Virus record (IMG/VR): IMGVR_UViG_3300032894_000334
Span: 4,761-68,760 of that record
From: a virus
Taxonomy: Duplodnaviria > Caudoviricetes
Strand: one strand, 5' to 3'
DNA: 64,000 nt
Shown here: positions 490-52,157 of the stretch, piece by piece
How the letters are laid out: every line of letters begins with the position of its first letter
Numbering within the stretch: the stretch's first letter is position 1
Position numbers and translations under genes: made by a program
Notes under the pieces: model-generated
What the model saw: only the letters and a program-made list of their open reading frames with translations
Told to the model about the DNA's origin: nothing
Databases searched by the model: none

Positions 490-1211
490 CTTTTGCCCTT
501 TATCCACAAATTCGAAGCAGGAGTCTGTACCCAGGAATCAAACCCTTCCTCCTCGAACCACCTGAAGATTTGCTTTTTTGTGAATCCGTAGTTGTACCGG
601 GGGTTGAGCGCGTCCCACCAGCCATGAAGGTTTTTTTTCGTCTTTGCTGGCAGGCAGAACGGGGTGGGGATGCCATGAAACCACCGGACGGAACTGAGTT
701 TCTTTGCGAATACCAGCTTGCTATCTGCGCTCAATCTTCTGAATATCCATCGGAACGGGTAATATTTCCATTGGGTTTTCCGGTTGTAAACCATCACGAA
801 CAAGTACCCGCCAGGATAGACCATGGTAGCCAGGTTGTGAAAGGTTCCCCGCGGATTCCGAGTGTGGTGGATCATCCCGAAGGAAAACACCAGGTCGAAG
901 CCGATCTGATGGCAACTTCCGGACCAGTACAGGGCTTCAAATGACAGGTCCATCTGATAGGTCAACCTAGGGTTTAAGGTTCTAGTCTTGGCGACGGCTT
1001 CTGGGCTGATATCGGCGGACGTTACCTTTGCCCCGAGCTGCTGTAATGCCCAGGTGTATCGTCCGGTCCCGCACCCGGCATCCAGCACGGTCTTTCCTGG
1101 AAACCAGGAGATAGGAAGCCTCGTCATGTTCAAGACCTCTGTTACCCGGTCCTCAGTCAAATGCAGAAGATCGCTGGGCAGCTTATCCCATTGAAAATCA
1201 AACTCGCTCAA
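486..1211 (-). CDS. Class I SAM-dependent methyltransferase
   Basis: Motif I VLDAGCGTGRY, acidic SADIS, FDLVFSFGMIHH. Confidence 0.9.
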   Translation of the reverse strand: MSEFDFQWDKLPSDLLHLTEDRVTEVLNMTRLPISWFPGKTVLDAGCGTGRYTWALQQLGAKVTSADISPEAVAKTRTLNPRLTYQMDLSFEALYWSGSCHQIGFDLVFSFGMIHHTRNPRGTFHNLATMVYPGGYLFVMVYNRKTQWKYYPFRWIFRRLSADSKLVFAKKLSSVRWFHGIPTPFCLPAKTKKNLHGWWDALNPRYNYGFTKKQIFRWFEEEGFDSWVQTPASNLWIKGKR

Positions 1212-8601: not shown

Positions 8602-8871
8602 CTACTGATGCAGTTTTTGAAGCAGCGTCATGTTAACCAACGTAACGAGAAGGGTAAGGACAATTCCAGCGAGTCCGCAGAGGAGCGCCCAAAAAAATCG
8701 ATCTTGCTTGCGATCAATGTTGCCCACCTTTTCCTGAACGCCTGTCATCTGTGTTTCCATCTTCACGATCCTTTCACACGTTGGCCCATGATCCTTGCAA
8801 GGACCAACGCTAAACTGTGCCATGTTCGTCATTGAACCATTCTCCTCTACAATTAAATCCTCGGTCTTCAC
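8602..8871 (-). CDS. Holin-like (XhlA-type) coiled coil plus single TM helix
   Basis: C-terminal FFWALLCGLAGIVLTLLVTLV; directly upstream of the endolysin. Confidence 0.5.
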   Translation of the reverse strand: MKTEDLIVEENGSMTNMAQFSVGPCKDHGPTCERIVKMETQMTGVQEKVGNIDRKQDRFFWALLCGLAGIVLTLLVTLVNMTLLQKLHQ

Positions 8872-19400: not shown

Positions 19401-22234
19401 CAGCCTTCCCTTTTCTGGATGAACGGGTTTGAACCCTCTGTGGCATGAGAGACCAGCACGTCCATGGCATTCCCATTCTTTCTGAACAGGTCCAGGCCTT
19501 TCGCCACGGTCATTCGCTTGCCGGACATGCCCTGGACGACCTTAGTGATTTCTTCCCCGGCCTTAGTGGATACTCCGCCCCAAAGGAGAATATGTTCCGC
19601 TAGATATGGTTGCCTACGGGCAAGCTCCTGTCTCGCTTTTTGCTGGGCTTGCATCTTCTCTACCGGGTGAATCGTTACGGCTTCTTTGGGAGCGCGTGGC
19701 CTCTTTTCAAATCCCTCAGGAGCTGTCCATGGTTGTTCTGCAGCGTACTTGTGGAGGGCTTCTTGAGCTGCTTCCCGCGTGGTCCACGTGGCCGGGACGG
19801 TAAACTCCGTTCGTTCCCCGGTAGAGACCGCGGTTGAGGTTCCCTTCATGTCACCCGGGACAGATGGAGGCTTGAAGCGTCTGCCCTTCTTATTGAGATC
19901 CTCAGTCCTGTACCATCCGAAACCGCCTCCAGCTTCTTTCGAAAGTTCGTTGACGTAGACATTCCGGCCCTGGGTATCAGTGTAGAAAGGGGGTTGATGT
20001 TTTGGTTCAGCGGCTTTTTGGGCTTCCCCAGCTCCCGCTGCCGGTATCGGTTCGGGTGTCGGCTCTGTCTTCGTTCCTACTCCAAATAGTTTCTTCCATC
20101 TTCCGGCTCTCGTCCCTTTTGGGGCTTCGGCAGGAGCTTCGCCTCCTGGTGCTCCTGGTTTAGCGTCACGGATAGCCCTAAGCTCGTCCATCATTTGCTT
20201 TGGGGTCTTGCCCTTCGTCTCGATCCCATTGGCTTCGGCAAGCCTTACGAAGTGTTCTCTGGGCAGTTCCGGCAGTTTCCCGGTCTTGTCTTCAATGTCC
20301 AAGGCGAGATTTATTTCCTTTATGTTCGTCGGAGTGCCCTTAAGGCCACCTTCCCCACCCCCTACTGGCCCTCCTATGATCTCCCCTGGCCCGGTCCCTG
20401 GCGCTCCCTCGCCCCCCGGTTCTTCTGCGAAAGGCTCGAGAATCCGATCCAGGATTTGTCTGTGGGTTATCCGATTGTCAAAACTGGCTTGGGCCTCTAC
20501 CGTGAACTGCTCGACAACGTCGTCTATCTTGTCTTTCGGAACGCCAGCTTCTTGAGCTGCCTTAGTCACCTCGATTTTAATGTTTTCGAAGTGCTCCATG
20601 AGCATGTTTTCATACGCTTCCTTGATGTACTTGTGAATCTCAGGAGCTTGATTGCCCATGAAGTCTACGGTCCGCTTGAACTCCTCAGCTTGATCCGCTG
20701 GTGTTGCGTCCCAGAACTGCGGGAATGGGATGAAACCAAGCGGAGCCTCCTCCGCACCGGTTGCTGTTCCTTCTCCAGCAGGCCCAGGCCCCAACTGTGG
20801 AGGCTGTCCAGCAGGCCCAGCACCCTCTGGGGGAAGCATGTCCTCAATCGCTTTGACATCTGATTTCTGTCCTTCTTCTGCTTTTTTAATAATGGCTTCT
20901 GCCGGTGGGGTTTCTTCCAGAACCGTTTTAGCGGTTTCATCCGCCTGAGTTCCCATCGGCTGATCGAATAAGCCTGGAGGTTCTCGGAACAGTCGCTTTT
21001 GGTGGCCGGTTGTGGAGGTTTTGTCTATCGTCTCATCGGATATTTTGGTTATTTTCTTTAAGTAGTAATCCTTCGCCAGCTTTCTGTTGTCCTCGTATTC
21101 CTTCCGGAGACGCTCCAGTTTCGTGTTAGAAACGGTCGTCACCACTTCTGCGCCGCCGCCCATCACGGCAGCCAGCGGGAAAACCGTTAGGGCGCTCTTG
21201 AGTGAGTCGTAGAACATGCCTTCAACATCGTCAGGCAGTTTCTGACCCGCCAGTATCGCCCCGCCGAGTTTTGAAATGACTTCCCAGGGTTCTTCAAGAC
21301 CCTCCGTGATCCCCTCAACCATAGAGGCCCCGAATACGCGGCCGACTTTTGATAGAAAGGTGTTCCCGGCTTTGCGCAGGATCCACTCAGTCCCGAACGC
21401 ATTGAGGGCGCCCACCCCGAAGAACATGAGTTCTGCCGACCGTGCCGCTTCTTCTTCTGACCCACCCCTTTTTAATATCTCCAGGTAGGTCTGTTGCGCC
21501 TCTGTCGCGCCTCCGGTCACGCCGCCGCCGATCCACGCGCCTATTTTACCGGCCCTTGTAACGAATTTTGTACCGGCTTCAGCCGCCTCCTCGGTTATGG
21601 CTTTGCCGGCCATTTTCCGCGCCCACATGCGTGCACCGAGCTTGGCTCCCCCTTTCATGGCCAATGCCCCGGCTCCCATGGTCAGGACCATCGACGGAGC
21701 CATCTCAGCAAGGTTGTAAACCCACCACGCAGCGCTCGCCAGCACCTCCGGATTGTCCATGACGTTGAACATATCCAGATCTTTCGGACGGAGTTCATCC
21801 GCTTTGTTCATCCAGAAATCGGCCCAGCCTTTTGAAGATTCCGCTACGCTTTCAAGCCGCAGCCTATGCGCGAGCCATGAGCCGACAACACCAGGCAGGG
21901 CAAGCATTTCGTAAACTCCGGTCTGGAGACCCCTGCTTACTAAATCAAGATAGTCTGGACTGTTGGATAATTCTTGATAGTCGGGCTTCTGGAGATGCTC
22001 TGGAGCGAGTTCTACATCAGGAACTTTCCAGTCTGGAATGTCCTCTCCCTCGATAGGAGATACTCGAGCTTTCTTGGCAAACGATGAAATCGTTTTCTCG
22101 TACAGATCCGGGGCATACTTCTTCTCCCACTCCAACCAAGGATTCCCCTCTGTGATGGTAGCTTCCCATGGCTTACCAGCGTCTTGTTGCCGTTGTTTCT
22201 CGAAAATTTCATTGATCCATTCAGCAGGCATCAA
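10481..22234 (-). CDS. Giant (3917 aa) polyvalent internal virion/DNA ejection protein with PRTase, SF2 helicase, GHKL ATPase and HEXXH modules
   Basis: Sits in the ejection-protein cluster; Ala/Gly-rich N-terminus; YVIFDDALVTGGT; SDGTGVGKT/DEAH/ATATP/QVIGRFSRRN; ELFQNSRDA/DDNGIGMT/GAFGLAK; HEFAH. Confidence 0.85.
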   Translation of the reverse strand: MMPAEWINEIFEKQRQQDAGKPWEATITEGNPWLEWEKKYAPDLYEKTISSFAKKARVSPIEGEDIPDWKVPDVELAPEHLQKPDYQELSNSPDYLDLVSRGLQTGVYEMLALPGVVGSWLAHRLRLESVAESSKGWADFWMNKADELRPKDLDMFNVMDNPEVLASAAWWVYNLAEMAPSMVLTMGAGALAMKGGAKLGARMWARKMAGKAITEEAAEAGTKFVTRAGKIGAWIGGGVTGGATEAQQTYLEILKRGGSEEEAARSAELMFFGVGALNAFGTEWILRKAGNTFLSKVGRVFGASMVEGITEGLEEPWEVISKLGGAILAGQKLPDDVEGMFYDSLKSALTVFPLAAVMGGGAEVVTTVSNTKLERLRKEYEDNRKLAKDYYLKKITKISDETIDKTSTTGHQKRLFREPPGLFDQPMGTQADETAKTVLEETPPAEAIIKKAEEGQKSDVKAIEDMLPPEGAGPAGQPPQLGPGPAGEGTATGAEEAPLGFIPFPQFWDATPADQAEEFKRTVDFMGNQAPEIHKYIKEAYENMLMEHFENIKIEVTKAAQEAGVPKDKIDDVVEQFTVEAQASFDNRITHRQILDRILEPFAEEPGGEGAPGTGPGEIIGGPVGGGEGGLKGTPTNIKEINLALDIEDKTGKLPELPREHFVRLAEANGIETKGKTPKQMMDELRAIRDAKPGAPGGEAPAEAPKGTRAGRWKKLFGVGTKTEPTPEPIPAAGAGEAQKAAEPKHQPPFYTDTQGRNVYVNELSKEAGGGFGWYRTEDLNKKGRRFKPPSVPGDMKGTSTAVSTGERTEFTVPATWTTREAAQEALHKYAAEQPWTAPEGFEKRPRAPKEAVTIHPVEKMQAQQKARQELARRQPYLAEHILLWGGVSTKAGEEITKVVQGMSGKRMTVAKGLDLFRKNGNAMDVLVSHATEGSNPFIQKREGWSASEYEEEFIRLFLKDLEARTEFSELTGNHQAKWRRLNEKLNKIPKEATEERKAIQLKLKHIENQIRAFGEQTGRVGRIADEEDRAGNQQQPQEEPEEGGPETPVLSRKDFTTWAEGEERLKALEPWDLDLVFQKLDQWTFDNPVEANKLTTWEERMDAADAWPPGGGGTAETVTPGFKIEYGGTPISGKEAVAPKQGVITHITPAENAAEAIEKAKPLFPSPAMKELTKAEKMKKLFEEPEKPFELKPTEPTTEEKIAEGIRKGILKKGPKGGPRAKLPEEKRKAPTTGKQESIIEKPAEKGEQSDFLDEAVKQAKSEEKRKALEGQAKEGDEAAQKDIKDILDTLQMRKEGIPHDTPISPAGLVQVMMANAYFKAAKSGDVEAAAKLVQALVSPEQIAFAKKFGKEAIYVPIIADEKEGKNKIPLAFAYHVASKTGAKVSTDIIQASRVARKGKGLLERMFRRADFEGKVRKGGLYVIFDDALVTGGTIAEVANHILQHGGQVVGIMALGKTPGAWYDLTIDQATYNEIRERFGHAIEEIFAVNPSALTSREAQFFLKAYRTVDALREAAAETGYRQFRGGFISALPEGGPSSIDPEKYVKIKGILDKLWKETQALAKTNGLTDDETDVFFIDRVHKLIGRDERIKPYFHKFAEDTWQEAKEAKDEKATRRTKVHEPADPGGPPTPGGVGEASPGGGRQGIRPGLRVADEDNLPEPRDQIPAGQYSILGEEQRLGINLILDAFDRGKKGFLLSDGTGVGKTMIQLVAAKLWAQKTGKKSLIIAPNLQIIEGRFREDARYLKMDLSQIEFATYSGLRVGKGGQGTYGVVIFDEAHNLKNMEAEKTLAANDIKADHRVYATATPMDKPTGAAYFLSRITGIPEARLHTELGFVVREVWIAEEKKFKKFTERLPGVSWARVMENIVKFRHKAILEGTILRREYPLFGNIKIEAEPLPAHLAAEQHRIEDYWGARIAAASMPIAKMHLRGQRTQELSRWADAQKVDRISERVADDLANGFRVVIVAHGVEPTIIKGLQKRIPQLIGGLVENLKQRGITDFAKIYGPNQVKKLSEIRRFQADKVKVAIMTAESGGAGVDLDDVHGDKPRRVYISSPSFQGDTFQQVIGRFSRRNTASPVEIVFPMWQDSEGDNRRAIVVTRKIETLRRIQEGDDIDKAIGFEDTEEMPTGSPPMSDETPRSPPREDIKARIDEIAQEVKARPVHSSIRDHELALLKRLAEGKEPIVYVKDDATRKHFQTNLWLTWKAQSHGISQKPIADHVELVHGGGDINAMTFQVLRPYGKLHFDPRDGELKLLSGTTLITDAIFQGPLINAQKTEREVKAGIDPFTNWINRMKDVANANPAKTLVTELFQNSRDALVQMAKKGAKQVGAYTPTLTIRWSRSENLVEFDDNGIGMTATQIEKNFLVLGDINKGTEDSGAFGLAKAFFLLYPKAGRLETVKEGKRHIIEWEPEDVFLAKKMKVRTEDFNGPNGTKVTLFLNEKMTPRFDWRDFVTELDRFASSVRTPGLRINLEPNIGLVTDRGPLSKVPDFDRTMGDKGSDMWKTVTTVGWDSEKLWKGSPKVPTGKMKFNYLGNKGTVYFVEIDPLDLPRINTKSFDGRPIARIFTYNKGMPTQVNLPSFMYWHPLSSPENLCIYVDFEDTVRPEQSQFDLKEAWESGDKDRIDAARDKYAKDADAYPWINNRKDLSDSSNNNLSQVIGPVLDQLRVDQIARQMERFKKMINEASEVNGMKVLIPFKDDAEKQIARKIFNDNKDFFGAWSEYYDAVGKLMENVRKEYPGMMLPERKLYLTLMQGIAGFVPNQKTVMELKGPEYAFIALNPLGHDERYLKWMKQNGMDITDPANLHDRAAMIVFATIHEFAHLYGEGHTDSNSDPFAIAHGMLGSAVKHIRLAILEEQVYEILQRFKGRLSGIESDLSSLGAGGNEFSQDLGTVVGPEWIQGPGAGIIHPLSTGTGSPGERGGDRGYNRGDLTSALLGRAGSPQAIQNLTQQPTGRQVAWDYEQNRTWAVKLFEMLNPAEIHISNTINKLQKKIQGLAGSASKVHPVRNPFWFLAYDKRLKRSQASDDLDRAMFLFRDSANGNREVFNRFRQIADAQLNDPNGYLTTMGMAADSPMGKRILSGEHKLYLKKILRLLDVAERMNPDQVHFVDEMAELFRDAGALANRHGLLKSFVENYVRRVYKARKGEDITPTGQGHAFKTYFTPAMPRTYHYALDAILDGYELGTEGITNAYKIYMDELTKVIQNKAFIKLGMGTYDSLGQQLFSTNRKDGYDKLNGFNVWVWAGDVWAEKEIPGFPALHINEYGKRFFATPPRELPEMWKVGRKYFDDEAAARQYAKERGGKEVTYVKAKDTSTFFEKVDLYAPKQLAEIINKMTQTDTLFRSGALNEVMRFNAGIKAWVLMSSFFHHLAGTRSWVFGVNHGWKWSKVAPWRAYKAGLDKINALHPLIILGVKNGLTLGEIADFSEFELRSAKGFTERIVSHFGLEKPLGLVEWFKFKRESWADSLFKKFFAGLKAEAFAIEYNHALQGAMDEYRLGKRNATPDPDRIAEAVAKLINDDFGGLHLKRMGRNPTLQNLFRLTFLAPDWTESNFRYVFASLGLEGVINKMVTDIAPPPEYKALARKFVTRVMLRIAVMTILAQLMLNWKDDTEDFLKEQMFSNRFNRFRWTEVDISKLYQMMGVDPEQRTTFSIGGHFFDPLKMIAPFKLMKGKGSPVWRIGDALFSGSDWAERPFTSISELAATGKTVKKSFHQPKEGELSRLPSIVVNQITNMQPIQVGHAIRYWQGEEDALTALLQSSGAMVHKAWKPYMETPIAGKSGPDLLMDVITDLKDKNVLKMGPPAKILTIQGKQYQLTPKQYKQYVDDSTALTRRRLEPKVEAINEMPDARKSKLIETVVLDSRKTIAGRIKRDLLVTAREKGGKPMATPNAPIRTSSGEIDWEAEILKELKK

Positions 22235-40095: not shown

Positions 40096-41607
40096 TCACT
40101 TGTTCTTTGCGATATTTTTACCAGGGAGAATCACTACCCCCGATTGGCGATCCGGCGCATAGATACCGGACGGCTTTTGTCTCCAATGCTGCCCACCATA
40201 GCTCAGAACCCTTCTTGCGCGGTTCTCTTTGTCCTGGTTCTTTATCCGCTGGATGGGATTGTATGGGAATAAAATGGCTGCTCCATAGCTCCAGGCATTG
40301 CCGGGATGAGAGTGCTCGTCGGTCTGGACAGGCTTGTTTCCTATCACGTTCCCGTTATTATCGGTCTTGTAATGCCAACCGCCTTTTAAGGCTCTATGCA
40401 ACCGGACAGCGGTTCTTGACAGGATAACCGTTGGAATCCCATCGGCGATAAGGGTCTTGAACGGCTCATTGACCGTTTCCCTCCTGACTTCCCAGCGGTC
40501 TGGCCCGAGTTCGCACCGGCACGCGAAACTATTCTCGATTTCCCTTCTTGCGGAGGACCTGGAGCTTGACTGGTCTGAGGTCGCCATAGAGGGATCCAGA
40601 ATGGCTCGCCATCCCTCAGGACTAACCTTGTTTTTCCACTTAGGACTCGCCATCATCGGCTTGACTTGTTCTCGGATGAGTTCCTTCGTCCCGATACCTT
40701 CGTCGTACAAAACATCGTGGATCACGAGTTGTCTGGCTTCTCCGAGATTTCCCACCTGCCGATACTGTGCAAGGATGCAAGTCGGATTCATCCATCCGTC
40801 CCAAAACATCAAAGCCTCGCCCTTAAGGACCGGGAGGATTTTGTCTGAAAAATGAATTCTTGGGTTGTATGAGGTGGTCACCTTTTTTCCCATGGAAACG
40901 GCCGCTTCTACCCCTTCAACATACCGTGACCATTTTCCAGGGTCATCCTTGAAGGCTGCCATATTGGCCGCCCTGGCTATTGGGCTTAAGTGGGTGTTTT
41001 CACCTCTTGGTATTCTGAACAACTTTTTATAGATAACCGTTCCATCCTCTGCCGTAAGATACTCGTCCGGTTCTTCTGCGACTTTGGCGGTCCAGTGATT
41101 TTCGTCTGCTGGGTTCTGTGTGATCTGCACCCTCATCTTCGTGCCGGTCTGCCGCGCCGCCCTGGCAATAGCCATCATGAACACTTCCTTTGGAAGTCCT
41201 GCGTTCGCCCTCTCGTAGATCGGTGCCGGTTCCTCCAGCCAGATGATGGAGTACTGTGGGCCTTGAAGTTTACTGAGAGAGGCTTGATCGTCAATGCCGA
41301 ACAAGTCAAGGTGAACAGGGGGATCGGTTTTTATGGTGGCTTCTCGCTCCTGGTCTCGGAACTGGATGTGTTCTCCGAGATACGCTTTCATGTCCTTGGC
41401 CGTGCTTTTGCGAATGTTGGTGTGCGTGTCCCTGATGAGCGCTCCGAATATTGGGATCCCGCATCGAGCTGCGTGAACGATCAGGGCGACAGTCCCGGCG
41501 AAGGTTTTACCTTCTCCCATCGGGCCGACCAGCATACAGATATGAGCGTCCGATACGGCGAATTGGTACTGTGTCGGGCTTAAATCGAATTGGAGGTCGT
41601 CTATCAT
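40096..41607 (-). CDS. terL: Terminase large subunit
   Basis: Walker A GPMGEGKT, Walker B IIWLEE, motif III ITQNP, RNase-H-like FWDGW...LDPS...HPGNAWSY. Confidence 0.92.
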   Translation of the reverse strand: MIDDLQFDLSPTQYQFAVSDAHICMLVGPMGEGKTFAGTVALIVHAARCGIPIFGALIRDTHTNIRKSTAKDMKAYLGEHIQFRDQEREATIKTDPPVHLDLFGIDDQASLSKLQGPQYSIIWLEEPAPIYERANAGLPKEVFMMAIARAARQTGTKMRVQITQNPADENHWTAKVAEEPDEYLTAEDGTVIYKKLFRIPRGENTHLSPIARAANMAAFKDDPGKWSRYVEGVEAAVSMGKKVTTSYNPRIHFSDKILPVLKGEALMFWDGWMNPTCILAQYRQVGNLGEARQLVIHDVLYDEGIGTKELIREQVKPMMASPKWKNKVSPEGWRAILDPSMATSDQSSSRSSARREIENSFACRCELGPDRWEVRRETVNEPFKTLIADGIPTVILSRTAVRLHRALKGGWHYKTDNNGNVIGNKPVQTDEHSHPGNAWSYGAAILFPYNPIQRIKNQDKENRARRVLSYGGQHWRQKPSGIYAPDRQSGVVILPGKNIAKNK

Positions 41608-42729: not shown

Positions 42730-42918
42730 CTATTCTCCTGCGTCCGTGTCCACGTTTTCTTCGAACGGCCTCAAGCGTGATCCGCAGCGGGGGCAAATGT
42801 CCGTGTCATCTCTCATCGCCGGATCAGCCAGCCACAAGGTCCGGATATACGGCGCGATCTTTCCACACTTGCTTGCGCGGCATACGTGCACGGGAATGTC
42901 TTCAATCGGTCCGCTCAT
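42730..42918 (-). CDS. Zinc-ribbon protein, paralogue of 33349-33687
   Basis: MSGPIEDIPVHVCRASKC...WLADP...CPRCG. Confidence 0.65.
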   Translation of the reverse strand: MSGPIEDIPVHVCRASKCGKIAPYIRTLWLADPAMRDDTDICPRCGSRLRPFEENVDTDAGE

Positions 42919-45434
42919 CAGTCATCCAGAGAAAGCAAAAGGTTGTTCTTGATATTGAGATACATTTTAGCGTCTACGTCAACGTACAACCCATAGCGCC
43001 GCGTTACTGCTGCTCCGCCATGAACACAGGCGTCGGGCGTTATTTCCATAGGAGTGACGATGATATCTACTTCGGCCTGGTCAGCGAGCTGGGCGTGAGC
43101 ATTGTCATCAGCCGCGATCAGGTGAGTCTGGAGAATCGAAGCGATATCGAGCGACTGAAGATGGATCGCTTCTTCTGCGATCAGAATGTGAATCTGCTCA
43201 AATGTAGCAAAGTCATCGTTAAGAGGTCCTCGGAAGATCTGAAATTCATCTACGACAATACTGCCAACTTCAGTCCCCAAACCCCATGTATCAGCCCAAT
43301 TAGAAACAGCTGCAGGAATTAAAACAAGATACGCATATCTACCCGTAAGTGCTCCACCATCAATAGTCATCCAGACACGCCACCAAGCTGAATCATAGCT
43401 TTCAACTCCAGCAGTACAACCTGCCATGGGTCCTGCAACATGCTTGGAAGCACCAGTTTTAGTGTTGACTCTAAAGAAGATTGTTTTTCCAGGTTCATTG
43501 CCATATATATTAAGCAAGAAATCAGGGAACCTAGATTCATCGCTATCCTTTTTAAGATAGAAGGCTACGGTTGTTCGTGTATCCACTCCGTCCGATATCA
43601 GGCACTGCATATGCAGTTCTTCCTGAGTATTACCATCATCCTCCACTGTCCACGCCATATTAGAGGCAAGATCGTATCCAACTTGATTTTGGACAGGAGT
43701 TAGATCAACTCCGAACCAGTTGCCACCATCAAGAAGATTTCTAGGACATGGAAGGACATTCTCTGCATGGAACGTACTGGCAGGAGTCAATAAGTTCGTC
43801 TGGAGGATCGAAGGAGCGTCAGCGGTCTGTGCATGAACGCAGTCGGCAGGCGTGATTATCACGGCTGCGGTGATGGTGGCCTCATCGGCTAGGGTCGCGT
43901 GAGTGGCATCCGCTCCGGCGATGATATGCGTTTGAAGAATCGAAGCGGGATCAGTGGGCTGGGTATGAACGCAATCGGCGGCCGTGATCGTAACGCTGCT
44001 CGTGACGACTACGGTCACTTCGTCCGACAGGGTCGCGTGGACGCAATCAACCGGAGCGATTACGTGCGTCTGAAGCAGGGCCGCCGCATCGGAGAGCGTC
44101 GCATGGGCGCAATCCGCAGGAACGACAATCTGGGTCTGGAGGAGAGTCGCCCCGTCCGCGAGAGTGGCGTGCGTCCCATCGGCTGCGGCAATCACGCTGG
44201 TTGCAATCGCCGTTGTCTGATCTGCCAGGGTCGCGTGGACTGTGTCTGCCGTGACGATGAGATGCGTCTGAAGGACTACTGCCGCATCGGTCGGGGCTGT
44301 ATGGACCGTATCATTCGCAGCGATCAGGTGAGTCTGGAGGAGCACGCCGGCATCGGCCAGGGTTGCGTGGACCGTGTTGTTGGCGTTTATCTGGGTCGCC
44401 CCGCCGCCGACTCCGATGGTCCAGGTGGCATTCGCCGTGTAGTTATTGAACGCCACCCCGTTCGCGGTCAGGCGCAGGTTGTAGACCTGGTTGTTCGCCG
44501 CGCCCTTGGTTGAATCAGCCTTGATGCAGAACTCTATTTCCGTGTAGTTGTTGGCGGAAATGTCGATGGACGGTAGTGGGTTCGTGTCATCCGAGATCTT
44601 GCCTGCCACGAAGTTGTTCCCGCTCGTCTTGTTGGCCGGAGCGGTGAGCTGCGCCGTGGTATTATTGTTCCCGCCTGCCGCGATGTTGTTGCTGGCGGAA
44701 AGTACGATGGGCTTCGAAACGACGACCGTGACGTTATCCGCCAGGGTTGCGTGGACCGTGTTGTTTGCCGCGATGTTGTTCGAAGGGAAGTAGGTGATGA
44801 TGATCTGGCCATTTGCACCGTACCCTCCGAGCCTTGCGGTCGTGCTGTTCTTCCAGGCACCGCCGCCGCCGCCGCCGGGAGCGGATCCTGCAATCCCGAC
44901 TCCGTTGGCAGTATTTCTGCCATTGCCTCCGGCGCCGCCGCCGCCTCCGCCTACGCCGCCATTGTAGCCTATCGCCCCGTTTCCGTTGGCAGCATTTCCG
45001 GCCGCAGCTCCACCGCCTCCGGCGTAGGTTCCGGCAACTCCGTTTGCTCCTTTGCCTCCGGCATATTTCACATCTCCGGTGCAATTCGCGACTGCTCCGC
45101 CATTCGCGCCGGTTACATTGTTAGAACCCGGCCCTCTGCCGCCTTCAGCCTGACAAACTATAGTATTCCCAGCATCGTTGAACCAGCTATTTCCACCTGT
45201 CCCACCGCTTTGTGAACCACGAGCTCCAACGCTAAAACTGTATACTGTTGTTGGGATAACAGGATAGTCATTTAGTGCAGCAAACGCACCTCCACCACCA
45301 CCACCACATACACCGTTAGCTCCTCGATTCGATCCTCCAGCGCCGGCAGCCCAGACTTCGATCTTGGCCGTGGTGACGTTGGCCGGACAGGTCCAGGTCC
45401 CTGCTCCAGAAGTGGTGTAGGTGTTATTCGCCAT
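42918..45434 (-). CDS. Fibre/spike-like virion protein: Gly-rich domain, Asn-rich domain, 22-aa His repeats, inserted globular domain
   Basis: GGGGGG runs; D/N-x-x-HATLAD repeats; 15 N-X-T sequons in residues 1-376. Confidence 0.7.
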   Translation of the reverse strand: MANNTYTTSGAGTWTCPANVTTAKIEVWAAGAGGSNRGANGVCGGGGGGAFAALNDYPVIPTTVYSFSVGARGSQSGGTGGNSWFNDAGNTIVCQAEGGRGPGSNNVTGANGGAVANCTGDVKYAGGKGANGVAGTYAGGGGAAAGNAANGNGAIGYNGGVGGGGGGAGGNGRNTANGVGIAGSAPGGGGGGAWKNSTTARLGGYGANGQIIITYFPSNNIAANNTVHATLADNVTVVVSKPIVLSASNNIAAGGNNNTTAQLTAPANKTSGNNFVAGKISDDTNPLPSIDISANNYTEIEFCIKADSTKGAANNQVYNLRLTANGVAFNNYTANATWTIGVGGGATQINANNTVHATLADAGVLLQTHLIAANDTVHTAPTDAAVVLQTHLIVTADTVHATLADQTTAIATSVIAAADGTHATLADGATLLQTQIVVPADCAHATLSDAAALLQTHVIAPVDCVHATLSDEVTVVVTSSVTITAADCVHTQPTDPASILQTHIIAGADATHATLADEATITAAVIITPADCVHAQTADAPSILQTNLLTPASTFHAENVLPCPRNLLDGGNWFGVDLTPVQNQVGYDLASNMAWTVEDDGNTQEELHMQCLISDGVDTRTTVAFYLKKDSDESRFPDFLLNIYGNEPGKTIFFRVNTKTGASKHVAGPMAGCTAGVESYDSAWWRVWMTIDGGALTGRYAYLVLIPAAVSNWADTWGLGTEVGSIVVDEFQIFRGPLNDDFATFEQIHILIAEEAIHLQSLDIASILQTHLIAADDNAHAQLADQAEVDIIVTPMEITPDACVHGGAAVTRRYGLYVDVDAKMYLNIKNNLLLSLDD
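43770..44390 (-). repeat. Intragenic ~66-nt (22-aa) tandem repeats
   Basis: About 9 units such as LLQTHLIAANDTVHTAPTDAAV. GCCAGGGTTGCGTGGACCGTGTTGTT occurs identically near 44356 and 44740. Confidence 0.85.
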
Positions 45435-46359
45435 ACGCCTCTTTGTATTGCTGGAAAAGCGACTTCATCTCTTTTTTCGGGTCAAAAGTTTTCATTAGAT
45501 GCGGAGAGAGGAATCCCTTTTCATTCAGGATCATGAAAATCCCGTACCGGGCCGCTGTCCGGTCCCGGTAATCCTGATCCTTGTAGGCCGCCATCTGCCC
45601 TGGTTCCCTGAAACACTTGAGATCGGTCAGGACGTACTTTCCGGAATCGATCTTTTTGCTCTTTCCCTTCAGGCGCTCCAGGTTTTTAGGGGATATATCG
45701 TCCGCTCCCTCCAGGCTCGACCGGCGCTTGAGCGGGAAGGCGCATCCGCACTTCGGGCAATACTCCTTCATCTGCTCAATGAAATCCTTCGGGGTACGCT
45801 TCCACCAGTTCTTTCCGACCGGCCAGCCGGAGTTGCCGTCGAACAGGAGCGACATGGCCGCTGCGATCTCGCAGAAAAAACCGCCCTTCGGATTGATTGA
45901 AGCGCTCCAGGCGTTCTGGACCCAGCACTCGTTGATGTTGATCCACATATCCTCGGGATCCGGCTGGACCTCCTCGGCTGAAACCAGGATCGGGGCGTGC
46001 AGGATGTCGGATCGCGTGTGATCGTTCAGGAAGATATGCCCGAAGGTCTTGCAGATCGCTTCTCGGTAATGCTCGTATCCCTTTGGAAAGCAGCTCCACA
46101 AGCCGAGCTGCGATCTCGGGAATTTGGAAAGCATGTAATCGCAGAGTTTTTCGAACTGCGGGTGAAGCAGAGGTTCCCCGCCCATCATGCCGACCATCTT
46201 CGGAAAGCCTTCCATGGAATCGACGGCTGACTTGAACTGGTCGAACTTCATGAAATACGGTTTCCGGTGGCCGCAGAACCGGGTGCAGTTTGAGCACTCG
46301 TTGATGCAGGCGTTCGTGACCTCGATTTGGATGGTGTCCATGGCAACGAGCGATCTCAT
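45424..46359 (-). CDS. Radical SAM protein
   Basis: CINECSNC CxxxCxxC; GGEPLLHP; C-terminal CFCE/CPKCG-type cysteines. Confidence 0.9.
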   Translation of the reverse strand: MRSLVAMDTIQIEVTNACINECSNCTRFCGHRKPYFMKFDQFKSAVDSMEGFPKMVGMMGGEPLLHPQFEKLCDYMLSKFPRSQLGLWSCFPKGYEHYREAICKTFGHIFLNDHTRSDILHAPILVSAEEVQPDPEDMWININECWVQNAWSASINPKGGFFCEIAAAMSLLFDGNSGWPVGKNWWKRTPKDFIEQMKEYCPKCGCAFPLKRRSSLEGADDISPKNLERLKGKSKKIDSGKYVLTDLKCFREPGQMAAYKDQDYRDRTAARYGIFMILNEKGFLSPHLMKTFDPKKEMKSLFQQYKEAYGE

Positions 46360-46868
46360 TCAACCTCCACATACCAAATACCATTCGGCCCGGATTCAAA
46401 TTTAAGATTCATATATTGAAGCGCTCCATTAACTCCAGCCCATCCCGAATCATGCCCACAAATGAGTTTCTTGCATTTCGGAAGCCAGCAGGTCAGATCG
46501 GTGAGGACAAACTCGAATAGATGACAAGCGTCGATCCAGACCATGTCAACTGATTTTGGAAGAAATAATTTCGCGGCGTCGGCGCTGGACATCTCCAGCA
46601 GATGCAGGTTCGGGAAATGCCCCACGTTCTTCAGGAAATCAAGCTTTCCACTTTTGTTTAATGTGTAATCCGCAGGATCGGGCGACCCTTTGAAATGATC
46701 TACCGCAGTGACCGTGCCCTTGCATCCACTCAGAAGGGCATGAGTCGATTTACCCTTGAATGATCCTATTTCTACAACGCTGTCCATTTTTGTCGCTTGT
46801 TCATAAAGCCATTGGGCGCCTTGATCGTCGACCGAACTCTCCGGTTCATTCATTGGGATGTAGATCAT
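46356..46868 (-). CDS. Class I SAM methyltransferase (sugar O-methyltransferase-like)
   Basis: VVEIGSFKGKST, AVDHF, DMVWIDACH...CGHD. Confidence 0.88.
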   Translation of the reverse strand: MIYIPMNEPESSVDDQGAQWLYEQATKMDSVVEIGSFKGKSTHALLSGCKGTVTAVDHFKGSPDPADYTLNKSGKLDFLKNVGHFPNLHLLEMSSADAAKLFLPKSVDMVWIDACHLFEFVLTDLTCWLPKCKKLICGHDSGWAGVNGALQYMNLKFESGPNGIWYVEVE

Positions 46869-47563
46869 TCAACTCCCCATCCTTTCAGGACTTCGTGCAT
46901 CCGGACCACTTTTTCATCATTCGGGATCGTGTACTGATGCCAGAGAAAGCCTGGGTTTTCTCCGAGCCCGACTCTTTTTTGTATCTCCATGATGGTCGTG
47001 TACTTCAGGCCGTATTTGGCGATGTTGCGGCTCAGGGTGTAGTCGTCGATCAGGTGCGGGCCGTCGACCACGGTCTTCAGCTCCTGGACCGTTGCGTGGA
47101 TATTTTTTTGCGCTTCCTCCATGGTGAGATCATCCAGCGGGTGCCAGAGCTCGATGCACCAGTCGCTCGCTATGGCGAACCAGTTGCAGGACCCGATATT
47201 CCTGCCGTCCCGCCAGAAGAAGCGGTCATAACTCCACCGGATAGAGGCCATATCGACGCCGTTATGAGCGACAGTGTCCTTTGGCAGATGATTGGTCACA
47301 TCGAAGAAATCCGGATGAATCAGAGTGTCCGAGTCGATATAGATGTTCCAATCATTGCCCATCTCCTTGGATAGGTCATAGATCTGGAGCTTCTCGTAGA
47401 CCGGAGGAAAGTCCGGAAACTTCCGGTCCTTGATCGTGTAGAAATCCGCCCCGATCTTGGCCGCGTAGTGCTTGAGAAGCGGGTAAGTGACGTCGCATAT
47501 CTCCGGGGCATAGTTGTCTACCCGGAGGGTGAAGATCGTTTTCTTGAGAGGTTTTTGCCACAT
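46865..47563 (-). CDS. GT-A fold glycosyltransferase
   Basis: YAAKIGADF, YEKLQIY, DXD motif IYIDSDTLI, NIGSCNWF. Confidence 0.75.
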   Translation of the reverse strand: MWQKPLKKTIFTLRVDNYAPEICDVTYPLLKHYAAKIGADFYTIKDRKFPDFPPVYEKLQIYDLSKEMGNDWNIYIDSDTLIHPDFFDVTNHLPKDTVAHNGVDMASIRWSYDRFFWRDGRNIGSCNWFAIASDWCIELWHPLDDLTMEEAQKNIHATVQELKTVVDGPHLIDDYTLSRNIAKYGLKYTTIMEIQKRVGLGENPGFLWHQYTIPNDEKVVRMHEVLKGWGVE

Positions 47564-47567
47564 AAAG

Positions 47568-48422
47568 TTAGCTTACCTTCCAGTAATCAGATTCGGTTGA
47601 AAGTTTCGCTTCAAGTTGATATTGAGTTGCAGCCGGATCGCCAATCGCGTTCACTATGAATCTTACCCTGAGGTTCGTGTCGAGTGGAGCGGTGATATTC
47701 GTGTCTTGTGCCTCCGCAAAGGTCGCGCCTGCCTCATCTCCATCATCGTTTCGAAAGCGAAAGCCTTCCTGGTCTAAGAGTACGGCTGGAATCAAGGAAA
47801 TAGCAATACAGCCGCCATCACTTGTCCCTCCTGAGTATTCACCTGAAACTGTTTCACTAGCCCCATCAGCAGTCATCTCCGCCAGTGAAAGGAGAGATGA
47901 AACATCATCATAACAGTCAACAACGCCAGTGCAGTTAGTCCAAGTACATGCTGTAACACCGGCATAATACTGCTCCACCATTACAACTACTTTGTCCCCA
48001 GAGACAGTCGTTACAGTTCTGGATGGCACCGATGCTCCATTTAATCCAGACGAGTCCCGGACACTACCTACCCCCTTGTAAGCCATCCAAGCAAACTGAT
48101 GTTCATTTGTTGAGGCCGCAAAAGTCCAATCAACTCGAACTGTACCTGTAGGTGGATCGTAGAACACCCACGCCGCACCTTGAAACATCGTAGAGTCAGA
48201 ATCACAACCACCTACCTCGACATCAGGACTAATCGTGTTGCTTTCCAGCTTAACTCCATTAGTGCCACTAGTACAACCATCAGCAGTGCCATTGAACGTA
48301 CTTACAAAAATAATCAGGCAGTCTGTGTCTGATGGCACGGAGATGTTGAAGTTCCCCGTTGTAGCTGCGCTACCAGGATCTACATCACCATACCAGGTTC
48401 CTGATGCGTGTTCTATTGTCAT
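47568..48422 (-). CDS. Beta-rich virion structural-type protein
   Basis: T/S/G-rich; C-terminal DQEGFRFRNDDG...YQLE. Confidence 0.6.
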   Translation of the reverse strand: MTIEHASGTWYGDVDPGSAATTGNFNISVPSDTDCLIIFVSTFNGTADGCTSGTNGVKLESNTISPDVEVGGCDSDSTMFQGAAWVFYDPPTGTVRVDWTFAASTNEHQFAWMAYKGVGSVRDSSGLNGASVPSRTVTTVSGDKVVVMVEQYYAGVTACTWTNCTGVVDCYDDVSSLLSLAEMTADGASETVSGEYSGGTSDGGCIAISLIPAVLLDQEGFRFRNDDGDEAGATFAEAQDTNITAPLDTNLRVRFIVNAIGDPAATQYQLEAKLSTESDYWKVS

Positions 48423-48424
48423 GC

Positions 48425-48805
48425 TCAGCTCGGCTGATTAAAATCGATGTTCCAGGCATTGATCTGGATCGGGTTGCCGGTCGTAACTACCTGCGAGCCG
48501 CAGGTCGTTACGTACTTCAGGGTCGTGTTCCCCGAGATCCCCAAGGCCACATGCGCTGCAGTGCCGTTGGCAGTCGCATTGTTGCCGGTTCTCTGGTTCG
48601 GCGTAATCCTGCGGCTGTTCGCGGCGTTCCCCGCACCAGGCCCCGTGTAGTTACCTGAGTTCATGGAGTAGGTGCAAAGGTTCAAGGTCGCGTTCGCATC
48701 CGTCCAGTTCGCAGGCTGGGTCGAGCAGAGGAATTCTCTATCACAGTTGTTCTTGATGTAGTTCAAGGACGCATCTAACACATCGGCATCACACCATTTG
48801 GCCAT
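48425..48805 (-). CDS. Small Asn-rich virion structural-type protein with 6 N-X-T sequons
   Basis: DVLDASLNYI...CSTQP...AAHVAL...YVTT pattern; 19 Asn in 126 aa. Confidence 0.65.
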   Translation of the reverse strand: MAKWCDADVLDASLNYIKNNCDREFLCSTQPANWTDANATLNLCTYSMNSGNYTGPGAGNAANSRRITPNQRTGNNATANGTAAHVALGISGNTTLKYVTTCGSQVVTTGNPIQINAWNIDFNQPS

Positions 48806-48929
48806 TTTCTTTGTCCTCCTTTTCTTCTTTTTGGATAACCGGATCCGGGACGGTGATGTCCCTGATCTTGATCGTCAGATCATCCGGCTGGATGATTATC
48901 GTTTTGGGACTTTCGTATTCATCGGTCAT
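48789..48929 (-). CDS. Small ORF (46 aa)
   Basis: Hand translation MTDEYESPKTIIIQPDDLTIKIRDITVPDP...; SD AAAGGAG. Confidence 0.5.
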   Translation of the reverse strand: MTDEYESPKTIIIQPDDLTIKIRDITVPDPVIQKEEKEDKENGQMV

Positions 48930-48941
48930 TTTTTATCTCCT

Positions 48942-49178
48942 TTACCAACCTAATGTCAGGCGATTGTCCCACGCGCCAACAAGCGGCCCTTGGATTTTAA
49001 CGCATTGTTCTCCATCCCAGGTGTATTTGAATATATACCAGGCAGGGTCGCTCGACAGTGCAGTGGGGGAAGAATGGTGGCCTATAAAATCTACTTGGCT
49101 GGCTCCGGTGACACCGGTTGACCACTCAAGTAGTTTTTGAAGGCTAGAGAATTGCCAGTTGAAATGTGGTCCAGGCAT
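48942..49178 (-). CDS. Small phage protein
   Basis: SDPAWYIFKYTW...AWDNR motif; SD AGGAG. Confidence 0.6.
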   Translation of the reverse strand: MPGPHFNWQFSSLQKLLEWSTGVTGASQVDFIGHHSSPTALSSDPAWYIFKYTWDGEQCVKIQGPLVGAWDNRLTLGW

Positions 49179-49221
49179 AACTCCTGTAAGTCCACTTTTT
49201 CAGAGTGTTGTCAAGGAGTTT

Positions 49222-50061
49222 TCAAAGGGTCTTGCCCATGCCTTGCCATTGGGAACACTCTCGGCATATTTTATCAGGGTACTTCTCTCGGATGGATTTT
49301 ATCTGCGGACTTTCGAGAATATCCTTGAGGCTCATGTTGATCGCGCTTAATCCGGGGATCGGATCCCAAACATAACAGCACCGGCTGACACTTCCATCCC
49401 AGGCGATAACCAGGTCCGTGTCGAGTCGGCTGCACCAGGCCTGCTCTTTCTTTGGCAGATACCCAAGACCAATGGAGCCCCACTTTCCATTTCTCGTGTG
49501 CGGCTCGTAGATCCGGACCTCGTCGGCAATCTTAAGTTGCTTCGCCAGGACTCCGGTCTTTTCGCCGTCTACCATGGTAGCGCATACGTGAATCCTTGGT
49601 TTAAACAGCTTTCTCGCGGCTAATATGGCGGTTAATCCCTGCCAGGAAAGGGAGTTGTGTATGCTCACGCTGACCACTTCAGCAGCCATGAACCCGGACA
49701 TTTTTCCCGCAAGTAGTAATCCGTTCGTGGCTATTATGACCTTCCCGGACACGCTTGAAGCAAACACCATACAGGATTCGAACTCTGGATGTAGGCTTGA
49801 CTCTCCTCTCCAGAAAGGCAGAATCCTCGTGCCCCCCCCAAGCTGGCAAACCAAATGCTGGAAGAACGCTTTGGGCATCTTCCCGAGCCGCATGGGGAAG
49901 TAATTCCTTGGACACATTTTACACTTGAGCTGGCACTCGTTCGTCAGCTCGAGTGTTACCCGGCGCTGGCCGAGCGGGAGTCCTTCGCGCCTAGTTTGAA
50001 CCACAACATCGTTCCGCAAACGTGGCATACCTTCGCCCCTTCCAGATACGCAATCCGGCAT
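49222..50061 (-). CDS. Radical SAM protein with SPASM/twitch domain
   Basis: CQLKCKMC; RGESSLHP; CSRL...IAWDGSVSRCC...CRECS. Start uncertain. Confidence 0.88.
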   Translation of the reverse strand: MPDCVSGRGEGMPRLRNDVVVQTRREGLPLGQRRVTLELTNECQLKCKMCPRNYFPMRLGKMPKAFFQHLVCQLGGGTRILPFWRGESSLHPEFESCMVFASSVSGKVIIATNGLLLAGKMSGFMAAEVVSVSIHNSLSWQGLTAILAARKLFKPRIHVCATMVDGEKTGVLAKQLKIADEVRIYEPHTRNGKWGSIGLGYLPKKEQAWCSRLDTDLVIAWDGSVSRCCYVWDPIPGLSAINMSLKDILESPQIKSIREKYPDKICRECSQWQGMGKTL

Positions 50062-50780: not shown

Positions 50781-50853
50781 TCATTCCCTCTCTATCCCAG
50801 GAGAAGCGGATCCCAGAAAAGGCCGGACCCTCATCACCGGCCTTTTCCTTTTT
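50781..50853 (+). ncRNA. Candidate ~70-nt small RNA
   Basis: Bounded by the promoter above and a hairpin plus T-tract; no ORF; CU-rich. Confidence 0.4.
50817..50853. terminator. Bidirectional intrinsic terminator
   Basis: AAAAGGCCGG-ACCCTCATCA-CCGGCCTTTT followed by CCTTTTT; abuts the stop of 50852-51061. Confidence 0.75.
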
Positions 50854-51061
50854 ACTCGTTCCGCGCGATCGAAGCGTTCGCGCAGTAGACAACATCGTCC
50901 AAGTGCGTGAAAGCCAGGGATCGCTCCCGGCTATCTGGACACACGGCGTTTATCAGCTTAGCGAACTCCAGAGCTCGGTCCCGGATCTGTCTGTAACGGT
51001 CGATCTGGTCGTTCTTCGGCGCGTGATAAGTGTACCTCTTGATTAATTCCGCTTCTTCCAT
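50852..51061 (-). CDS. Acb2/Tad1-like helical-hairpin protein (candidate immune-signal sponge)
   Basis: YTYHAP...Q...Y..IR...A..I...CPDSRERSLAFTHL...CANASIAR. Confidence 0.65.
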   Translation of the reverse strand: MEEAELIKRYTYHAPKNDQIDRYRQIRDRALEFAKLINAVCPDSRERSLAFTHLDDVVYCANASIARNE

Positions 51062-51100: not shown

Positions 51101-51808
51101 CTATAACAGGGTTTTTGGAATGAAAATCTCCTTCCACATCAGCATCTTACCATAGCCATGCTCCCGGCTCACTCTGTCCATGATGTAGTGTAGGTAAAAC
51201 AGGTCCCTGGGTTTTATGCCGCCAGAGTTGACGATCTCGCTGTACATCCGGTTGTAAAGCTCCTGGGTGTCGAAGGCGAACAGGTCTATGCCGTCGACCG
51301 CCCTGACCTGCTTGCCTTCCGTTACAACCCTCCCGTAAAAGTCGGCTCCAAGTTCGATCGCAAGATCGATGTAGTGGATGAACAGGTTAAAGAACATTCC
51401 TCCGGTCAGCCGCGGGTCCCCTTTCCAGGTGTCGAAGTAAGCGAAGTCCCTGACCATCACCACATGAACCTCATTGGCCTTCGCCGGTAGATCAGCAAAC
51501 CGGTACTGGAGCGTCACGCTCACTCGGTCATCGTCGATCAACGGCTCCCAAGGCATACAAAGCGGCTTCTCGCAAATGACACGGCCATACCCGGCAGCCA
51601 GGAGTTCCTTGGTGTACTGTCTATGGGTGTCGGACGGTGAGGCCACCACCGCGAAATCCGTTGGAGGCCCGGGCAGGACTATCTTCGGGAAAGGCACGGA
51701 GTAATAATCCTTCGGATCGTACGACCAATCAATCGTGCCGCCTACCGACTTGATCGCCGCGCTATGAAACTTCGCCGCGTAACCGTCACCAATGAGACTG
51801 AAATTCAT
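51101..51808 (-). CDS. wbpB: Gfo/Idh/MocA oxidoreductase, WbpB/WlbA-like UDP-GlcNAcA 3-dehydrogenase
   Basis: NFSLIG.GY, VICEKPL, LQYR, WKGDPR, N...H..D, as in P. aeruginosa WbpB. Confidence 0.75.
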   Translation of the reverse strand: MNFSLIGDGYAAKFHSAAIKSVGGTIDWSYDPKDYYSVPFPKIVLPGPPTDFAVVASPSDTHRQYTKELLAAGYGRVICEKPLCMPWEPLIDDDRVSVTLQYRFADLPAKANEVHVVMVRDFAYFDTWKGDPRLTGGMFFNLFIHYIDLAIELGADFYGRVVTEGKQVRAVDGIDLFAFDTQELYNRMYSEIVNSGGIKPRDLFYLHYIMDRVSREHGYGKMLMWKEIFIPKTLL

Positions 51809-52157
51809 AAGCTGGACTTCCTTTCACCTTCGCCCCGGCCGGGACGTCATTGGTCACCAATGCGCCTGCAGCCACCTTACAGCCGGCGCCCAGCCGGACC
51901 CCCGGCAAGATGATCGCCCCGCCGCCAATTACCACATCATCCTCGACAATGGTTCTAGGGTGGCCCCTCCAGGCCCCATGACTCGGTGGGTACTTATCGT
52001 TCAAGAAGCAGGCGTGAGGCCCTACAAAGACTCTATTCCCGATCAAAATATTATCGGGGATGAAAGCAAACGGCTGAATCCGGCAATCATCCCCGATCTC
52101 CGCGAAGTGTCCGATGAACGTGTGGTCATGAACTTTGGTCCGTTCTCCAATCAGCAT
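51786..52157 (-). CDS. Hexapeptide-repeat sugar N-acyltransferase (WbpD/FdtC-like)
   Basis: IGDDCRIQ, IGNRVFVGPHACFLND, IGGGAIILPGVRLG, GALVTNDVP. Confidence 0.85.
   Translation of the reverse strand: MLIGERTKVHDHTFIGHFAEIGDDCRIQPFAFIPDNILIGNRVFVGPHACFLNDKYPPSHGAWRGHPRTIVEDDVVIGGGAIILPGVRLGAGCKVAAGALVTNDVPAGAKVKGSPAYEFQSHW

Follow-up and report, generated by a model that had tools for sequence, protein, structure and literature searches.

Can a tailed phage decorate its own receptor-binding apparatus with a sugar that its own enzymes prepare and attach? The question is raised by a 64,000-nucleotide stretch of DNA, called here the window, which covers bases 4761-68760 of the 68,760-bp IMG/VR virus record IMGVR_UViG_3300032894_000334 (Caudoviricetes), a record rated complete by CheckV. 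In the window, genes for a glycosyltransferase (GT), a methyltransferase (MT) and a radical S-adenosylmethionine (SAM) enzyme stand between genes for structural proteins, two of which are unusually rich in the sequon N-X-T. An initial annotation, made from the sequence alone, had read this arrangement as a phage-run system for the N-glycosylation of virion proteins. To our knowledge, virion glycosylation by phage-encoded enzymes is documented only for the capsid and tail-tube proteins of mycobacteriophages, and it is also found in giant algal viruses. The analysis described below identifies the locus as an exchangeable tail-fibre module and tentatively favours the decoration of the module's own fibre, and it separates this reading from the N-X-T excess, which is real and is not evidence for N-linkage.

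An exchangeable tail-fibre module

The genes of interest are all encoded on the minus strand, as part of an extended late operon that continues into the terminase gene. In the order of transcription, the features are the following.

49222-50061, minus strand: rSAM279, a radical SAM/SPASM protein outside the swapped module (PF13186 SPASM, 34.7 bits)
42919-48960, minus strand: exchangeable tail-fibre module with p126, p284, GT, MT, radical SAM and fibre genes, delimited by the swap in the sibling phage L290
48425-48805, minus strand: p126, an Asn-rich small fibre-subunit protein with a predicted 'chain-like fibre monomer' fold
47568-48422, minus strand: p284, a minor-tail-like protein (phrog_553, minor tail protein, E=1e-6)
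46865-47563, minus strand: GT232, a soluble GT-A glycosyltransferase, GT34/GT8-like, with the DxD motif D77-S-D79
46356-46868, minus strand: MT170, a class I SAM-dependent methyltransferase (PF13578, 55.7 bits; cut-off 26.3)
45424-46359, minus strand: rSAM311, a predicted radical SAM enzyme in which a CX3CX2C motif lies near the N-terminus (residues 18-25) and the C-terminal part is Cys-rich
42918-45434, minus strand: fib838, the 838-aa fibre protein, made up of the next three parts
44790-45434, minus strand: fib838 residues 1-215, Gly_rich_2 domain with 5 N-X-T (phrog_863)
44307-44789, minus strand: fib838 residues 216-376, the first 'HATLAD'-type repeats and an inserted Asn-rich domain, with 27 Asn and 10 N-X-T
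42918-44306, minus strand: fib838 residues 377-838, repeat shaft and distal globular domain, no sequon
Beyond fib838: a 62-aa open reading frame (ORF), p201, p136 and TerL (40096-41607), then portal and capsid genes

The boundaries of the module are set by L290, whose TerL, p201 and p136 are 99%, 95% and 90% identical to those of the window, and whose DNA is ~96% identical over 9.6 kb, from base 42614 down to 33057. Just below the fibre gene, 171 bases (42919-42749) align at 92%, and the upstream flank (window 48960-49344), in which the 3' end of rSAM279 is kept, aligns at 79%. Between these flanks (L290 386-6320), unrelated genes for proteins of 1221, 631 and 110 aa replace window 42,919-48,960, and no GT, MT, rSAM, p126 or Gly-rich fibre is found in the replacement stretch. 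Window 42,919-48,960 is therefore one exchangeable tail-fibre (host-range) module, and it provides a sharp-edged example of a clean exchange. The fibre set and the three enzymes are missing together from L290 and are thus co-inherited. The region that the initial annotation had marked out as a glycosylation locus (42918-48805) matches the outline of this mosaic host-range module almost exactly, and the tight coupling of its genes was also recognized correctly: neighbouring genes overlap by 4 nt at 46356-46359 and at 46865-46868 and by 11 nt at 45424-45434, and elsewhere they are separated by gaps of 2-4 nt. No DNA-level match to the region was found among cultured phages, and a scan of the module for promoters and terminators returned nothing exceeding the shuffled background.

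The structural proteins of the module resemble parts of a tail-fibre apparatus. The Gly_rich_2 domain (PF21722) is recognized on residues 7-215 of fib838 with 47.9 bits, against a cut-off of 24.3, and the N-terminus of the protein is conserved in those homologues that are encoded next to the GT. The two variants of the fibre repeat cited in the initial annotation, ANNTVHATLADNVT and ADTVHATLADQT, are both present in fib838. A search for the Gly-rich domain in cultured phages gave no match, although the low-complexity filter interferes with this search. Although p126 has no Pfam match, its AlphaFold2 model (predicted local distance difference test, pLDDT, 94) has a predicted fold that matches the Sf14 neck chain, the tail fibres of phage 7-7-1 and the Bas63 connector (TM-scores 0.6-0.75), as well as GP4 fibre I (0.50). 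In addition, one of 54 p126 homologues matches PF23140 (Gp80, GP4 fibre I) at E=2e-4, which is a weak lead. The p126 family comprises 2125 cluster representatives, whose members usually sit just 5' of a large fibre gene; a scan of IMG/VR with p126 alone found nothing.

The enzyme cassette

The presence of a DXD glycosyltransferase, a methyltransferase and a radical SAM enzyme between the structural genes, as first annotated, is supported by motif, fold, Pfam matches and Atlas clusters. GT232 has no match in Pfam, NCBIfam or PHROGs and cannot be assigned by sequence to GT8 (PF01501) or GT34 (PF05637). Its AlphaFold2 model (pLDDT 88) shows a predicted GT-A fold in which the DxD motif follows strand 72-76, and both Asp residues, D77 and D79, are conserved without exception across 18 homologues. 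The best fold match of the model in the PDB is domain 1 of PBCV-1 A064R, at a TM-score of ~0.5 and a sequence identity of 11-12%, followed by retaining GT-A enzymes of GT34, GT8, GT24, GT25 and GT6, while the matches in BFVD include GT34-like proteins of uncultured phages and giant viruses. Foldseek returned 143 PDB and 140 BFVD matches at E<=1e-3, and the top 50 of each are all GT-A or unnamed. Sequence searches of the PDB with the GT, the MT and both radical SAM proteins gave no match, and a profile search with GT232 was empty as well. The relatives of MT170 carry the PHROGs label 'DNA methyltransferase'. The rSAM311 protein scores 25.8 bits with PF04055, under the cut-off of 29.5, and its NCBIfam matches cover the N-terminal part only; the Atlas clusters closest to it consist of viral radical SAM proteins and score 0.96-0.98.

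GT232 belongs to a large family, in which over 1800 homologues show 55-75% identity to it and certain members are fused to a PF13578 methyltransferase. The gene neighbourhoods of the family were compared in 86 GT loci, drawn from 80 IMG/VR loci, 15 genome loci and the window. Orthologues of rSAM311 (47-66% identity) accompany the GT in 21 of these loci and separate MT genes in 13, and an NAD-dependent (nucleoside-diphosphate, NDP, sugar) epimerase/dehydratase is part of the cassette in 8 of the 21. Furthermore, the relatives include proteins of 397-417 aa in which GT and MT are fused, and one of 489 aa (L069) that joins rSAM to MT. Because of these fusions, the co-occurrence of rSAM and MT with the GT and the epimerase/dehydratase in the cassette, the gene content points to GT, MT and rSAM forming one pathway of sugar tailoring and sugar transfer.

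Several observations on the surroundings of the cassette can be added. In the closest related module (L007), a GIY-YIG/NUMOD3 homing endonuclease gene (L007 4294-4998) is inserted between the MT and rSAM genes. Upstream of the module in the window, a hexapeptide sugar acetyltransferase (51786-52157, minus strand; NeuD/PglB/VioB-like) and a short GFO/IDH/MocA oxidoreductase (51101-51808, minus strand) are encoded, which might contribute further sugar-nucleotide chemistry feeding the GT. RiPP-like (ribosomally synthesized and post-translationally modified peptide) cross-linking of p126 by the SPASM protein rSAM279 was also considered, and it was dropped because rSAM279 is not part of the swapped module and because none of the 80 IMG/VR GT loci encodes a homologue of it.

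Pairing of the glycosyltransferase with Gly-rich fibres

A Gly_rich_2 protein is present in 28 of the 86 GT loci, whereas a single such protein was found among the 92 loci of the p126 and TerL sets that served as controls (Fisher p=2e-9). In 23 of the 86 it is the very next gene after the cassette, and the N-termini of these proteins are well conserved. The adjacency extends to a cellular genome. In a Woesebacteria chromosome (CP066693.1; L093 3561-13101), the gene for a GT232-MT fusion directly precedes that for a 562-aa Gly_rich_2 protein, after which Ser-Pro-repeat proteins are encoded. The pair sits inside a glycan gene cluster with more glycosyltransferases and methyltransferases close by and resembles a cellular counterpart of the enzyme-fibre pair; locus L083 presents a comparable pairing. 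The same locus holds ORFs with N-terminal sequences suggestive of an epimerase and a carbamoyltransferase. A literature search found no description of the GT232 family or of its link to Gly_rich_2 fibres.

The GT-adjacent Gly-rich proteins also share a start of the form M-x-N-N-T-[YF]-T (window 45414-45434; L015, L021, L022, L026, L027, L049, L070 and L007). Three proteins with an N-terminal Gly-rich domain and no GT in reach lack the Asn in this start motif, although these are few cases. The NT[YF]T core resembles the NTXT sites of PBCV-1; it occurs once in fib838, and the resemblance was treated as a coincidence.

Members of the GT family at 50-66% identity are found in bins assigned to candidate phyla radiation (CPR) bacteria, Acidobacteriota, Chloroflexia, Bacteroidota, Planctomycetota, Gammaproteobacteria and others. 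This spread across phyla fits an acceptor that is borne by the element itself better than a host-specific envelope glycan, with the proviso that phage contigs are often mis-binned.

What does the cassette act on?

Among the possible acceptors, we tentatively prefer the module's own fibre, and this reading, in which the locus is a fibre-glycan tailoring module, is given somewhat less than an even chance of being right. The module would then encode three virion proteins, namely the chain-like fibre subunit p126, the minor-tail-like p284 and the 838-aa fibre with its N-terminal Gly_rich_2 domain, together with GT232, MT170 and rSAM311 as soluble enzymes, the first a glycosyltransferase of the retaining GT-A type, the others a SAM methyltransferase and a radical SAM enzyme. 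The pathway would take up a nucleotide sugar, tailor it by methylation and radical chemistry and then transfer it, most likely to the module's own fibre and above all to the Gly_rich_2 protein. Transfer would probably take place in the cytoplasm, ahead of assembly, and the module would be a virion-glycosylation system akin to those of mycobacteriophages and chloroviruses. The solubility of the enzymes, their position in the late operon and their translational coupling to the fibre genes support fibre decoration. In addition, the GT is both co-located and co-inherited with virion genes, as would be expected of virion glycosylation of the mycobacteriophage type. The broader part of the initial annotation, a phage-run glycan-tailoring locus at the receptor-binding apparatus, is thus a reasonable reading, given the enzyme classes, the swapping of the block as a unit and the placement of the GT upstream of Gly_rich_2 proteins beyond chance; the part that assigned N-linkage to the N-X-T sites was not supported, as discussed below.

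Several points weigh against fibre decoration. In 58 of the 86 GT loci there is no Gly_rich_2 gene within reach, and therefore the acceptor cannot be the Gly_rich_2 domain alone. The GT is highly conserved beside very different neighbours, which suggests a generic acceptor, for example a sugar, and the phage does not encode an obvious initiating transferase. The first domain of A064R, which is the nearest solved relative of GT232, adds to an existing glycan and is not the activity that links sugar to Asn (PMC9614988). Moreover, the best match to GT232 among cultured phages (INPHARED) is 36% identical, and the phylum labels that underlie the argument from host range come from metagenome bins, which are unreliable for phage contigs.

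Could the cassette instead act on the host? Its substrate might be a host envelope glycan or a lipid-linked precursor, with receptor masking, superinfection exclusion or the keeping of progeny off debris as the outcome; its linkage to the fibre would reflect nothing more than a shared specificity for one host surface. The literature reads glycosyltransferases encoded in tail-fibre hypervariable regions in this way (PMC7029224), the module swap is equally compatible with host-specific cargo, and the Gly-rich fibre is missing from most GT loci. The phage also encodes a Wzy_C/O-antigen-ligase-like membrane protein, which is a 538-aa product of window 8868-10484 on the minus strand (PF04932, 53 bits), besides the sugar acetyltransferase and the GFO/IDH/MocA oxidoreductase mentioned above. 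On the other hand, the GT keeps 50-75% identity among contigs that are assigned to organisms with very different envelopes, it has no membrane segment and no flippase nearby, and it is positioned in a late structural operon, not in a lysogeny module. The tight +1 adjacency to a single domain, the CPR chromosome included, would also be unexpected for an envelope-modifying moron. Taken together, action on the host surface is rather unlikely.

Less probable still is that the enzymes modify a small molecule, the nucleotide sugar pool or the phage DNA and are merely parked in a recombination hot spot: the 'DNA methyltransferase' label on the relatives of the methyltransferase and the local gene traffic shown by the homing endonuclease inside the L007 cassette would fit, but base-hypermodification genes were not found in the window, the fusion to a GT-A enzyme and the linkage to an NDP-sugar epimerase point to sugar chemistry, and the adjacency to fibres is non-random.

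The N-X-T excess and the question of N-linkage

The fibre decoration favoured above leaves the type of linkage aside, and it was the density of N-X-T that had led the initial annotation to N-glycosylation. Its counts for the fibre and p126 are reproduced exactly. Residues 1-376 of fib838 contain 50 Asn, 15 N-X-T and no N-X-S, as compared with 4.8 N-X-T expected from shuffling, and none of 10,000 shuffles reaches 15 (p<1e-4); the following 462 residues (377-838) contain 16 Asn and zero sequons. In p126, 19 Asn, 6 N-X-T and no N-X-S are found, with 2.2 N-X-T expected (p=0.009). The four sequons counted in p284 are there as well (3 N-X-T and 1 N-X-S), but they do not amount to a significant enrichment (p=0.12). 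The shuffle test proposed in the initial annotation thus confirms the excess in the fibre and p126, and so do block shuffles over 15-60 residues, in which local composition is kept (15 versus 6.1-6.5 in the fibre, p=2e-4 to 8e-4; 6 versus 2.2-2.3 in p126, p~0.01). The excess is specific to the +2 spacing, since the Asn-to-Thr counts at +1 to +6 are 6, 15, 8, 7, 5 and 6 in the fibre and 1, 6, 3, 0, 2 and 1 in p126. All 21 sequons of the two proteins use Thr (p=1.5e-4 given the Thr:Ser ratio), and no N-X-T enrichment was detected among the other ~67 ORFs of the window.

Does the excess mark sites of sugar attachment? In that case, GT232 would represent a new, GT-A class of cytoplasmic protein N-glycosyltransferase that loads the N-X-T Asn residues of the fibre and p126, with the sugar then methylated and tailored by the radical SAM enzyme. 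The excess is indeed confined, within the module, to its two Asn-rich proteins, and p126 is the extreme of its family, with 19 Asn (median 6, maximum 18) and 6 sequons (maximum 4) among 143 members. Furthermore, the closest relative of p126, which is 62% identical, retains four of the six sequons, and in the predicted structure of p126 most of the six would lie in loops or where a secondary-structure element ends. Only L007 shares the overall gene set of the module, and it also encodes the only clear homologue of the Asn-rich fibre region, in which the first repeats have sequons at matching places and the insert has them at other positions. The standing of p126 in its family, the retention of four of its six sequons, the exclusive use of Thr and the matching repeats of L007 keep N-linkage alive at a low probability.

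The comparison across homologues argues against it. Contrary to the expectation that sequon density would track the presence of the cassette, the ratio of observed to expected N-X-T in Gly-rich fibres is 1.46x beside a GT (n=25) and 1.41x without a GT in reach (n=14), although the latter control is small, with 14 usable cases and short flanks, and comes from a degenerate DNA pattern that gives mostly chance matches; low-complexity patterns dominated a scan of IMG/VR with the Gly-rich alignment, which yielded 3 loci only. The p126 homologues behave likewise. Those beside the same GT have 2, 2, 0 and 0 sequons, the family overall has an N-X-T ratio of 0.94 and hence no enrichment, and among 49 further p126 loci, with a mean of 0.9 sequons, none has a GT within a flank of up to 10 kb. 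A metagenome scan for the Asn-rich sub-lineage represented by the two closest Asn-rich relatives of p126 (P0125 and P0187) found nothing. The fibre of L290, with no cassette in the available stretch, shows N-X-T at 1.5x and N-X-S at 0.5x. Within its own family, fib838 is no outlier, with a ratio of 2.16, a rank of 10 among 40 and p=0.08 against the family baseline.

The spacing of residues further suggests a structural origin. Across the Gly-rich family, the Asn-to-Thr ratios at +1 to +5 are 0.91, 1.46, 1.04, 1.33 and 1.02, and this periodic signal, raised at +2 and +4, fits the signature of polar residues along one face of a beta-strand. In residues 1-376 of fib838, the position two residues after Asn is enriched not just for Thr (3.05x) but also for Val (2.71x, p=0.0025) and Tyr (2.73x), and it is depleted of Gly (0.30x). 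Sequon selection would not favour Val or Tyr. The Gly-rich domain has no invariant Asn. As for the enzymes, neither a GT41/HMW1C-type protein (PF13844, at E<=1) nor an oligosaccharyltransferase of the STT3/PglB/AglB type (PF02516) was found in the 68.8-kb genome, and GT232 has a predicted GT-A fold as opposed to the GT-B fold of GT41. Consequently, with sequon density not tied to the GT, Val and Tyr enriched at Asn+2 and no GT41 or STT3 enzyme, the N-glycosylation at N-X-T that was first proposed is not supported, and it appears very improbable, the least probable of the alternatives considered here. The N-X-T excess, real as it is, is best explained by a structural habit of Asn-rich beta proteins of this kind, in which Asn stands two residues before a beta-branched or aromatic residue. 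In addition, p126 acquired further Asn residues in this lineage. The N-X-T density does not count as evidence for N-linkage. More generally, a sequon-like excess arises from structure in Asn/Thr-rich fibres, and a call of glycosylation needs a control set that is free of the enzyme.

Other genes of the window

Elsewhere in the window, a single ORF of 3917 aa (10481-22234, minus strand) presumably encodes a giant virion or ejection protein. This ORF, the absence of matches to tail-tube, sheath and tape-measure proteins and the Gp80-like p126 together suggest that the phage is a podovirus. A 69-aa protein (50852-51061, minus strand) has an Acb2/Tad1 hairpin domain (PF24729, E=2e-18) and is likely an anti-defence signal sponge. 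Finally, a PP-loop protein of the asparagine-synthase type (PF00733, without the glutaminase domain) adjoins a class I methyltransferase (1208-2014 and 486-1211, minus strand) and a DnaB-like helicase. The PF00733 protein could be a sugar or nucleotide amidotransferase, and any tie to the Asn-rich fibre proteins is pure speculation.

Significance and comparison with known systems

If the module does glycosylate the tail fibre, then a sugar-decorated receptor-binding apparatus would be common among environmental phages, given the more than 1800 homologues of the GT, and such decoration could affect host range, stability and the evasion of host defences. Should even the N-linked reading be true, the phage would have a self-encoded N-glycan coat on its receptor-binding apparatus, the kind of arrangement that the initial annotation had envisaged. 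Six genes that are swapped as one unit offer a concrete and cheap test system.

How does the module compare with systems that have been described? The enzymes HMW1C and ApNGT (GT41) are soluble and attach hexose to Asn in the N-X-S/T sites of adhesins (PMC3012730). These enzymes have a GT-B fold and the PF13844 domain, in contrast to GT232, which is predicted to be GT-A and does not match PF13844. GT232 would share its fold and the DxD motif with members of GT8, GT34 and GT24 (LgtC, GlyE, xyloglucan xylosyltransferase and the catalytic domain of UDP-glucose:glycoprotein glucosyltransferase, UGGT), several of which act on glycoproteins, but at the level of sequence it matches neither their Pfam models nor any PDB chain. 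Among the structural proteins, p126 is comparable with the chain-like fibre monomers of podophages, such as GP4 gp80, A1002 gp40/gp41 and VP1 gp11 (PMC13730344). It belongs to the same size class, has a similar predicted fold and is located in a fibre module, although PF23140 does not match p126 and the TM-scores of 0.5-0.75 are moderate.

A closer parallel to the enzyme cassette is offered by A064R of the chlorovirus PBCV-1, which consists of a GT-A domain, a second GT domain and a methyltransferase domain and builds the N-glycan of the capsid (PMC9614988). Both systems are virus-encoded and have a GT-A fold with DxD and a methyltransferase that is fused or adjacent, and the glycan machinery of A064R serves virion proteins. 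Unlike GT232, A064R has no radical SAM partner, and the sites used in PBCV-1 are NTXT or NIPG, not N-X-T (PMC9614988).

The nearest counterparts among phages are Che8, Corndog and Myrna, mycobacteriophages whose virions are glycosylated (Freeman et al. 2023, as cited in PMC12619734). According to that citing article, the glycans of these phages are found on the C-termini of capsid and tail-tube subunits, whereas the likely target here is the Gly_rich_2 tail fibre, as judged from the genes alone. The present module also differs from the mycobacteriophage system, as outlined there, by its GT family and by its radical SAM enzyme. What the two have in common, on the same account, is that soluble glycosyltransferases are encoded by the phage and co-expressed with its structural genes, an arrangement by which the mycobacteriophages decorate their own virion proteins.

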